Origin: Pseudomonadota bacterium
GTDB lineage: Bacteria; Pseudomonadota; Gammaproteobacteria; JAKAQQ01
Reading direction: 5' to 3'
Length of the DNA stretch: 62,510 nucleotides
NCBI GenBank assembly: GCA_027320085.1
Contig: DAHVLZ010000014.1
Location: 1 to 62,510 of the forward strand
The notes beneath the pieces are model-generated. The model saw nothing but the letters and a program-made list of their open reading frames with translations. It was not told where the DNA came from and did not search any database. The position numbers and the translations under genes were made by a program. Shown here piece after piece: positions 13,213-14,702 of this stretch (positions within the stretch are counted from its first letter, which is position 1; every line of letters begins with the position of its first letter).

Positions 13213-14004
13213 ATGGTGGATGCCCCCCTTCCCTCGTCTTCCGGAACGGACCCCAACCTGAGGCGAAAACGCCGGATCTACCTTTTGCCGAACCTGTTAA
13301 CGACGGCCGCGCTCTTCGGCGGGTTCTACGCGATCATCGCCGCCCTCAATGTCCGTTATATCCACGCGGCGGTGGCTATTTTTTTCGCTGCCGTGATGGA
13401 TGGTCTCGATGGACGGGTCGCCCGCTGGACGCGGACGGCCACGGAGTTTGGCAAGGAATATGACAGCCTGTCGGATGTCGTGGCGTTCGGTCTGGCCCCG
13501 GCCATCGTGATGTACCGGTGGGCTTTTGTCCCTTTCCTCCACGAGACCGGAAACGTGGCCCGCTGGGGGTGGCTTGCGGCCTTCTTTTACACCGCGGCGG
13601 CCGCCCTCCGTCTGGCCCGGTTCAACGTCCGCTCCCAGGCGTTGGACAAGCGTTATTTCCAGGGACTGCCCTCTCCGGCGGCGGCCGGGCTCATGGCCAG
13701 TCTGGTCTGGCTGTTGGTGCCCTGGTCGAGCGAGCACTGGACGATGATTCCGGCGTGGCTCGCCACCATGGGATGCGGAGTGCTCATGGTGAGTCCCATT
13801 CCCTATTACAGCTTCAAGGACCTGAGCCTCTCGGAGCATGTCCGCTTCCGCTGGGCGATTGCGATCCCGCTCCTCCTGATCGTCATCGCGATCAGTCCAC
13901 CCAAGATGCTTTTTGCCTTTTTGTTCTGTTATGCCCTGTCCGGACCGGCGGTCGGTCTGTGGCGACGCCTGTTTCGGCGTCGCCGGAGCGGGTTCATTCC
14001 ATGA
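13213..14004 (+). CDS. pssA: CDP-diacylglycerol--serine O-phosphatidyltransferase
   Basis: LLPNLLT, DGLDGRVAR..EFGKEYDSLSDVVAFG, ALRLARFN, FQGLPSP. Confidence 0.93.
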   Translation: MVDAPLPSSSGTDPNLRRKRRIYLLPNLLTTAALFGGFYAIIAALNVRYIHAAVAIFFAAVMDGLDGRVARWTRTATEFGKEYDSLSDVVAFGLAPAIVMYRWAFVPFLHETGNVARWGWLAAFFYTAAAALRLARFNVRSQALDKRYFQGLPSPAAAGLMASLVWLLVPWSSEHWTMIPAWLATMGCGVLMVSPIPYYSFKDLSLSEHVRFRWAIAIPLLLIVIAISPPKMLFAFLFCYALSGPAVGLWRRLFRRRRSGFIP

Positions 14005-14702
14005 GTTCAGGGAAGGAAGTCGAGGTGCTGGATTTTCTGGGTATCCCGGTCTGGGAGCGACGGACCCCCGGGGGTGTGTCCGGAGCCCGCGACGGATCCC
14101 ATGACCGGCCGGAACCTCCGTTGGACCCCGAGACTCTGCCGCCAGTGACAACTCTCGGCTGGGAAGATTTGGCCCGGCGGGTTTCTGGCTGTGAAATGTG
14201 CGGTCTGTGTCGCACCCGTCAGCAGACGGTCTTCGGATCGGGATCCCGGCAGGCGGATTGGATGTTCATTGGGGAAGCGCCGGGAGCAGATGAGGACCGC
14301 GAAGGGCAACCTTTTGTCGGGCGGGCCGGACAACTGCTCACTTCCATAATCGAGGCCATGGGGCTCGAACGGTCAAAGGTCTACATTGCCAATGTGCTCA
14401 AATGCCGCCCGCCGAAAAACCGGGATCCCGAACCCCAGGAAATTGCCTCCTGTCGGCCGTTTTTGGAACGGCAGGTGGACCTGGTAGCCCCTCGGATCCT
14501 GGTTGCGCTGGGCCGGATTGCCGCACAGAGCCTTCTCGGTACCGAGCAGCCGCTCTCCCGCTTGCGTGGCACGGTTCATACGCTGGGCGGGAAGATTCCG
14601 CTGGTCGTCACCTATCATCCGGCCTACCTCCTGCGCAATCCGGTGGCCAAACGGGAGGTTTGGCGGGACCTCTGCCTGGCCTTGGAACAGGCCGGATCCT
14701 AG
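14001..14702 (+). CDS. Uracil-DNA glycosylase family 4 (4Fe-4S)
   Basis: [48 protein letters not shown] overlap with pssA. Confidence 0.93.

Follow-up and report, generated by a model that had tools for sequence, protein, structure and literature searches.

A family-4 uracil-DNA glycosylase with a psi-like N-terminal peptide in the holD position: a candidate unreduced form of psi

The udg4 locus and its product

The 62,510-nt stretch of DNA analysed here (the window) belongs to contig DAHVLZ010000014.1 of a gammaproteobacterial genome assembly of the lineage JAKAQQ01. It carries a gene, referred to here as udg4 (14001..14702, + strand, stop codon included), whose 233-amino-acid product, P0001, was assigned to family 4 of the uracil-DNA glycosylases (UDG4) from its open reading frame (ORF) and translation and from matches to Pfam UDG and TIGR00758, and whose N-terminus resembles that of psi (HolD). 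Three parts can be distinguished on the + strand: a psi-like N-terminal peptide (amino acids (aa) 1-23, 14001..14069) containing L10, L13-G14-I15, W18, R20 and P23; a linker rich in Pro, Gly, Asp and Glu (aa 24-50, 14070..14150); and the family-4 UDG domain (aa 51-233, 14151..14699). The peptide was delimited by conservation among homologues, a peptide profile (A3, described below), hhalign comparisons and a helix in the AlphaFold2 model, the domain by invariant alignment columns and by comparison with solved structures, and the linker by a gap-rich region in the homologue alignment (A1), where both its length and its sequence vary, together with low model confidence. The first 23 residues translated from 14001-14702 are identical to those given in an initial annotation made from the DNA alone, and the Pro/Gly/Asp-rich linker and intact UDG4 domain described there were both seen.

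The gene order in the window is pssA-udg4-rimI-prfC, and the genes from ilvC to prfC all lie on the + strand and are tightly packed. Upstream of udg4 are ilvC (12188-13210) and pssA (CDP-diacylglycerol-serine O-phosphatidyltransferase; 13213..14004; TIGR00473, 110.5 bits), which overlaps udg4 by 4 nt, its stop codon overlapping the ATG start (ATGA). A conserved neighbour of holD, rimI (14714..15184; TIGR01575, 120.2 bits), follows 11 nt downstream, and is succeeded by prfC, encoding release factor 3 (NF001964, 735 bits). The order udg-rimI-prfC read in the initial annotation was thus recovered with both profiles, and the E. coli order holD-rimI-yjjG-prfC with which it had been compared was read in the annotated E. 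coli record. A consensus scan of window positions 11800-18400 found no promoter- or terminator-like sites above shuffled controls; for this reason we assume that the udg4 neighbourhood is co-transcribed. The longest prfC ORF (15153..16901) begins within rimI (window 15153-15330). Its first 56 residues fall outside the NF001964 alignment, which starts at residue 57, and translation of prfC therefore probably begins close to residue 56, about 50 codons downstream. An Atg22/major facilitator superfamily transporter gene lies after prfC, and the sole RNA gene in the window (ARAGORN; Rfam gathering thresholds) is a tRNA-Thr (CGT) at 60402-60477.

The Pfam UDG profile (PF03167) matched P0001 at aa 78-224 (E-value (E) 7e-40), and the score with TIGR00758 (UDG_fam4), 213.7 bits against a cut-off of 125.3, places the protein in family 4. 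Motif A of the family, GE[AG]PG, is present as GEAPG at residues 91-95, and motif B, HP[SA]xxLR, as HPAYLLR at residues 206-212. Alignment A1, which comprises 32 P0001 homologues with 53-87% identity to P0001, showed GEAPG (91-95), F105, N131, H206-P207-A208 and the cysteines C64, C67, C135 and C151 to be invariant. These motifs and the four cysteines aligned residue by residue with the UDG4 structures from Thermus (1ui0), Sulfolobus (4zbx) and Thermotoga (1vk2); the cysteines coincide with the [4Fe-4S] ligands of 1ui0, giving a predicted cluster site, while N131 and H206 coincide with the water-coordinating N89 and the leaving-group H155 of the Thermus enzyme. PMC5387724 names N89 and H155 as family 4's catalytic residues.

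An AlphaFold2 model of P0001 built from the 32-sequence alignment had a mean pLDDT (predicted local distance difference test) of 89.5, with a short N-terminal helix at aa 3-12 (pLDDT 67-79), poorly predicted residues at aa 25-36 (pLDDT below 50) and a domain modelled with confidence from around residue 50. It superposed on 4zbx with Z 29.4 and a root-mean-square deviation (rmsd) of 1.5 Å over 183 residues, as expected for the UDG alpha/beta fold, and on 1ui0 with Z 28.4. Its best 50 structural neighbours were all members of the UDG superfamily or related proteins; psi was not among these 50, a list saturated by UDGs. Judged by its residues and modelled fold, P0001 is very likely a catalytically intact [4Fe-4S] UDG4, with a predicted capacity to excise uracil. 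The solved UDG4s (Thermus 1UI0, Thermotoga 1L9G/1VK2, Sulfolobus 4ZBX) have the same fold as P0001 (Z 28.4-29.4, 38-42% identity). However, because their alignment to A1 begins only at position 56-59, at most about 20 residues from their own N-termini, they differ from P0001 in having neither the psi-like peptide nor the linker. The same genome also encodes a second UDG-superfamily protein in a 222-aa ORF (G000:C1:317081-317539; L196 1372-2040), with GQAPG and HPSPRN motifs and a PF03167 score of 78.9 bits.

The psi-like peptide and the holD slot

In E. coli, the N-terminal peptide of psi binds the DnaX collar, made up of domain III of three DnaX subunits. P0001 contains the peptide pattern L..LGI..W..R.P, and the consensus YLxAMGIxxWxxR was conserved at the N-terminus across the 32 aligned homologues. 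All 30 top-ranking loci in a search across the class had the shorter pattern [LM][GD][IV]xx[WY]; a lack of LGI..W conservation among orthologues, which the initial annotation had named as grounds for abandoning its proposal, was therefore not what we found. With the psi profile PF03603 (DNA_III_psi), 12 of these 32 proteins gave a match at E ≤ 1. Five homologues were scanned singly, four of which matched at aa 3-32 (profile positions 2-30) and the fifth not at all, and in the orthologue P0084 the match at aa 4-32 reached 25.5 bits, above the gathering cut-off of 22.2. Conversely, profile A3, which has 24 columns and was built solely from 28 UDG4 N-termini, aligned N-terminally in each of the 14 HolD-type proteins collected, with scores from 29.3 down to 0.0 bits (two at 0.0). 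Furthermore, hhalign paired the peptide of the P0001 family with the N-terminus of E. coli psi, in line with the initial annotation, which had likened the first residues of P0001 to HolD N-termini. Together these comparisons establish, at the level of sequence, that the N-terminal peptide of P0001 is homologous to the psi peptide, and aa 1-23 are presumed to form a DnaX-collar docking element.

The window's genome (2.14 Mb, 47 contigs, 96% complete) contains holC (97.9 bits), DnaX domain III and a DinG/YoaA-like helicase. It gave no match to PF03603 at E ≤ 10 and a single match to A3, at 14016-14078 (E 6.2e-7), so that the combination anticipated by the initial annotation, holC without a separate holD, is the one present, along with one psi-like peptide. 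The wider distribution was surveyed in an even sample of 300 genomes of the GTDB class to which the window belongs (the tallies include G039, G141 and G296, which are flagged as unpublished and on which alone no claim rests). UDG4 profile matches were found in 236 of the 300, and 132 of the 150 UDG4 matches listed begin at profile position 2-7 and thus include the peptide. A3 matched 206 of 301 genomes, 28 of which are its own source genomes, with exactly one match in 201 of the 206, and the peptide was usually fused to UDG4. PF03603 was detected in 21 of 300 genomes (15 above the cut-off), several of the matches being N-terminal only and lying inside UDG4 frames of 232-260 aa, and holC was detected in 248. 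Across the phylum outside the class, A3 gave only weak matches, in 10 genomes (E 0.005-0.05); at 15-19 bits these were read as noise and rejected as real peptides.

Gene order was compared in 80 named reference-genome loci, comprising 54 with gammaproteobacterial or similar labels, 19 betaproteobacterial, 2 from Acidithiobacillus and 5 non-proteobacterial. At the gamma-labelled UDG4 loci, the peptide was contained in the UDG4 ORF in 48 of 54 (A3, E ≤ 0.01) and rimI lay downstream in 47 of 54. For comparison, rimI was located directly downstream on the same strand in 10 of 14 short HolD-type genes, and two loci (L006 and L009) had pssA directly upstream of a short HolD gene, as in the window. 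This survey of udg-rimI against holD-rimI synteny, suggested in the initial annotation, shows that the P0001 gene occupies the position of holD, immediately before rimI. The betaproteobacterial loci (within L106-L164) had the inverted order rimI-udg4 in 18 of 19; the gamma-trained profile passed none of the 19, and a variant motif, MLxEMGxxxW/F, was recognised by eye. The two Acidithiobacillus and five non-proteobacterial loci showed neither an A3 match nor an adjacent rimI. UDG4 N-termini with fainter motifs of the L..LG type, lacking the Trp and with no rimI nearby, were seen in two Acidobacteriota metagenome-assembled genomes (MAGs; L141, L154) and two Acidithiobacillus loci (L115, L142). 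In a Holophagales MAG (L143, on a 192-kb contig), the UDG4 grouped with the window's genus (95 in the Shimodaira-Hasegawa-like approximate likelihood ratio test, SH-aLRT) and had a peptide-like N-terminus with Tyr in place of Trp; this placement could reflect gene transfer or a binning error.

Homology of the psi core and the UDG4 core

The relationship between the two proteins is not confined to the peptide. Thirteen short HolD-type proteins, found with PF03603 in the class survey, were aligned with E. coli HolD (alignment A2) and compared by hhalign with the UDG4 alignment. The two matched with 98.9% probability (E 2.4e-17) along 150 columns that begin in the peptide and end in the C-terminal helix. 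With both N-terminal peptides removed, the cores still matched at 97.6% (E 2.9e-12), and with the three most UDG-like rows also removed at 96.2% (E 2.7e-9), while controls using reversed and column-shuffled UDG alignments and a HolC alignment gave at most 1.2%. In a search of PDB sequences with the HolD profile, psi chains ranked first and the first non-psi match was the Thermus UDG4 1ui0 (E 0.1). The P0001 family likewise conserves LLxxILxA and KRxLWxxL, the two helices that vary least in HolD.

Structural comparison gave the same picture. A 168-aa HolD-type protein (PF03603, 30.7 bits over profile positions 4-124) was modelled with a pLDDT of 85.4 and compared with 48,161 PDB representatives. 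Seven chains reached Z ≥ 8 and all seven belonged to the UDG superfamily, the top matches being the Thermotoga UDG4 1l9g (Z 13.9, rmsd 2.8 Å over 133 residues) and UdgX (Z 13.2). UDG4 was thus nearer to the model than E. coli psi was (3sxu_B; Z 7.5 over 97 residues), and vaccinia D4 (8q3r_D) had Z 7.6. The ESM Atlas neighbours of another HolD-type protein (L003) included clusters named 'UDG-like domain-containing protein', psi, and type-4 UDG clusters with a template modelling (TM) score of 0.58-0.59. The resemblance of the psi core fold to glycosylases, which the initial annotation had noted, is therefore borne out by both the core alignments and the HolD-type model, and the psi core can be regarded as homologous to the UDG4 core, by alignment, independently of the peptides. 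Also among the L003 neighbours were clusters of Bacteroidota hypothetical proteins of 193-220 aa (TM by query 0.58-0.60), with PF03603 on 13% of one such cluster, and psi-like or UDG-derived proteins may exist outside Proteobacteria.

Several proteins combine features of both types. The 186-aa protein of L010 exceeds the cut-off of PF03167 (52.8 bits) as well as that of PF03603 (24.3 bits, profile positions 2-77); it retains IIGEA, LLxxMLxAIG and VTY..AYLLRxPxxKRKA, has lost the cluster cysteines and has altered GEAPG and HPA motifs, and its nearest rows in our tree are gammaproteobacterial UDG4 proteins (46% identity). L004, which retains HPSHLL..KRHAW, and L014 have PF03603 matches together with sub-threshold UDG matches. 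L016 and L022 are of full length with altered motifs, and L016 passes the PF03603 cut-off. From our reading of the survey tables, 21 genomes have a peptide or PF03603 match in an open frame shorter than 200 aa, and in 18 of these no other part of the genome matches UDG4 at better than E 1e-36 (in 3 it does), which fits decay in place rather than duplication. We have high confidence that psi is a decayed member of the P0001-type UDG4 family. The change would most simply have run from UDG4 to psi, because a scaffold is not likely to give rise again to an iron-sulfur (Fe-S) enzyme. The suggestion in the initial annotation that such a fusion might be the ancestral state of psi fits these observations, with the active fusion widespread, short psi rare and motif-losing intermediates in existence.

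Compared with P0001, E. coli psi (HolD, PF03603; 1EM8, 3SXU, 3GLI, 8GIY) has the same peptide (L..LGI..W..R.PG), a homologous core, a gene directly upstream of rimI with prfC nearby, and one copy per genome. In contrast to P0001, it is a non-enzyme of 137 aa with neither the Fe-S cysteines nor GEAPG, and without the catalytic Asn or HPA; P0001 for its part has a longer linker and falls below the PF03603 cut-off. The decayed forms show that a scaffold role can outlast catalysis, and it could be argued that P0001 itself is a purely structural psi, in which the glycosylase motifs are kept only for folding or for the cluster and no catalysis takes place in vivo, uracil repair being covered by the second UDG-superfamily gene. 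This is very unlikely, as the catalytic and cluster residues are invariant in the 32 homologues, which argues for selection on activity, and lineages no longer selecting for activity lost the motifs quickly.

Chi, the clamp loader and the role of the glycosylase

The known role of the psi core is to hold chi (HolC). In E. coli, W57 and F64 of chi are reported, in the part of PMC11981726 that concerns this site, to be essential for binding HolD and also YoaA. The equivalent residues did not vary among 31 HolC sequences of the class, including that of the window's genome (W55 and F62). As a YoaA-like helicase is present in this genome, their conservation is non-discriminating and was rejected as proof of a psi partner. 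When the class genomes were cross-tabulated for holC and for psi (scored as either the peptide or PF03603), 186 had both, 62 holC only, 25 psi only and 27 neither; holC was present in 183 of the 205 cross-tabulated peptide-positive genomes. In many genomes holC and the peptide-bearing udg4 were on the same contig at a distance of 6-25 kb (about 6 kb in G074, 9 kb in G202, 11 kb in G145 and 14 kb in G096), a loose linkage and not an operon.

As far as sequence, predicted structure, synteny and distribution can probe it, the interpretation given in the initial annotation is supported. The best explanation of the sequence evidence appears to be that P0001 is the positional and sequence orthologue of holD in an unreduced form. 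As we envisage it, the peptide would dock one copy of the protein on the DnaX collar of the clamp loader, and the flexible linker of about 27 residues would bring DNA close to the primer-template junction, and the template coated with SSB (single-stranded DNA-binding protein), within reach of the UDG domain. The UDG-fold core, equivalent to the psi core, would bind chi and so link the loader to SSB, and the active site would stay available for removing uracil at the fork, from single-stranded or newly made DNA. Short psi of the E. coli type would be the same gene after loss of the Fe-S cysteines and catalytic motifs. The separate parts of this proposal differ in strength. Docking on DnaX seems rather likely in view of the peptide homology, whereas binding of chi by the core is, to our minds, evenly poised. 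The combined reading, in which the udg4 gene is an unreduced holD orthologue encoding an active, DnaX-docked and chi-bridging UDG4, we would give an even chance. The same balance applies to its extension, that proteins of this type are the 'missing' psi of most Gammaproteobacteria (in the GTDB sense, including Betaproteobacteria), where an active Fe-S UDG would be an integral loader subunit bridging to chi and SSB, with E. coli psi as its pseudo-enzyme relic.

Several observations weigh against the proposal. P0001 itself misses the PF03603 cut-off (13.5 against 22.2 bits, E 0.087), and its sole match to this profile lies at aa 110-131, within the UDG core and not in the peptide. E. coli psi scores only 8.7 bits with A3 (aa 9-24), and A3 finds no match in the E. 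coli chromosome at E ≤ 1; the link from P0001 to E. coli psi therefore runs via intermediates and profiles. The tree does not place the short psi rows, since five rows of the decayed type sit on end branches of 1.66-3.02 and most forks are open; several other rows are also very long, probably as a result of frame extraction. Co-occurrence of holC and psi is only moderate, and related genomes are not independent samples. Finally, the conserved Trp/Phe site of chi is YoaA's site as well, in a genome that has a DinG/YoaA-like helicase.

The low PF03603 score of P0001 would also be expected of a free-standing UDG4, with a peptide that is a relic or serves some other partner or role, in a genome where psi is absent or too divergent to recognise. 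Divergence of psi past detection is known from the relevant passages of two studies (PMC3290774, PMC3197488), and the 62 of 248 holC-positive genomes with neither peptide nor PF03603 indicate that detection limits or true absence do occur. We consider a free-standing enzyme improbable, given that the peptide is conserved even in homologues of 53-64% identity and occurs once per genome in nearly all peptide-positive genomes, that PF03603 recognises it in orthologues, that the gene occupies the holD slot, and that neither PF03603 nor A3 revealed a second psi candidate in the window's genome.

The chi-related observations bear instead on the main rival to the bridging proposal, in which the UDG4 is tethered to the DnaX collar but forms no bridge to chi, which would act with YoaA or alone. 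Consistent with this, 25 of 52 holC-negative genomes have a PF03603 match or a peptide of the psi type, which shows that the peptide persists where chi is lacking; UDG4s of another class and of non-proteobacterial phyla have N-terminal motifs of their own with a similar shape; and the chi site is common to YoaA, as noted for E. coli in PMC11981726, with a YoaA-like helicase present here. On the other hand, the chi-holding psi core is homologous to the UDG core over its whole length, the two best-conserved helices of HolD are kept in the P0001 family, and holC accompanies the peptide here and in most peptide-positive genomes. A tether without a bridge thus seems possible, though doubtful, and a core that also contacts chi is the reading we prefer.

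In the other class, which belongs to the same phylum, 116 of 121 genomes have UDG4. Of 30 loci examined there (L197-L226, reached via G383; L207 is from a genome flagged as unpublished), at least 23 contain a motif, LLRWxxEAGADEAIxDxPVNR, about 100-130 aa before GEAPG, which resembles the gammaproteobacterial motif in shape (an aromatic/hydrophobic run, then G, I/V/A and D) and may be a diverged docking peptide. The similar-shaped N-terminal motifs on UDG4 proteins of this class and of some other phyla hint that tethering of UDG4 to the clamp loader may be older than chi and psi.

The psi of Pseudomonas aeruginosa, a 32 kDa protein reportedly studied by Jarvis et al. in 2005, offers a possible parallel. 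It is about twice the size of E. coli psi, has a long disordered N-terminus with the conserved docking peptide and escapes standard homology searching. Its binding to DNA is something that a fold derived from UDG might show, and unlike P0001, with its predicted activity, it has been described as non-enzymatic; the likeness is drawn from the published description. The sections of two reports dealing with it describe it as 'cryptic', found only by co-purification, able to bind single-stranded DNA and essential (PMC3197488, PMC8879598), and E. coli psi is reported, in the portion of PMC11253446 that treats it, to make no contact with DNA. In the same literature, chi is described in alpha-, beta- and gammaproteobacteria and psi as detectable only in some gammaproteobacteria, with the psi site of chi conserved even so, in the passages on their distribution (PMC3197488, PMC3290774).

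Uracil glycosylases that work with the replication machinery are found in other systems. Replisome-associated UDGs include the archaeal UDG-PCNA pair and human UNG2, which associates with PCNA and RPA, and in vaccinia virus (D4, within the E9-A20-D4 holoenzyme) and herpesviruses (UNG) the enzyme is built into or tethered to the replication machinery. All of these belong to other UDG families, and their partners are A20 or PCNA, not the clamp-loader collar. A structural role of D4 that is independent of catalysis is described in the relevant text of PMC1936997.

Our literature searches found no bacterial replisome-tethered UDG and no paper linking psi or HolD with uracil-DNA glycosylase, although remarks on fold in the original psi papers would escape such a search; PMC3197488, PMC3290774 and PMC8879598 do not contain the word 'glycosylase' at all. 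The Atlas automatically names some short psi-like proteins 'UDG-like'. Since the resemblance was mentioned in the initial annotation, the fold similarity between UDG and psi may have been noted already in structure classifications. What was not found in print is a proteobacterial UDG4 that carries a psi docking peptide, lies in the holD slot and is likely to be unreduced psi.

The P0001 family provides a concrete and testable candidate for the missing psi, present in most of the 300 class genomes sampled. It would trace psi back to a repair enzyme that has decayed, would account for the large, DNA-binding psi of Pseudomonas, and would correct the annotation of genes now labelled only 'uracil-DNA glycosylase' or 'DNA polymerase'. 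If the proposed docking is true, uracil excision, and possibly Fe-S redox sensing, would be physically coupled to clamp loading at the bacterial fork, a coupling comparable to those known in poxviruses, herpesviruses, archaea and humans, and a direct attachment of uracil repair to the replication machinery may be found in many related bacteria.

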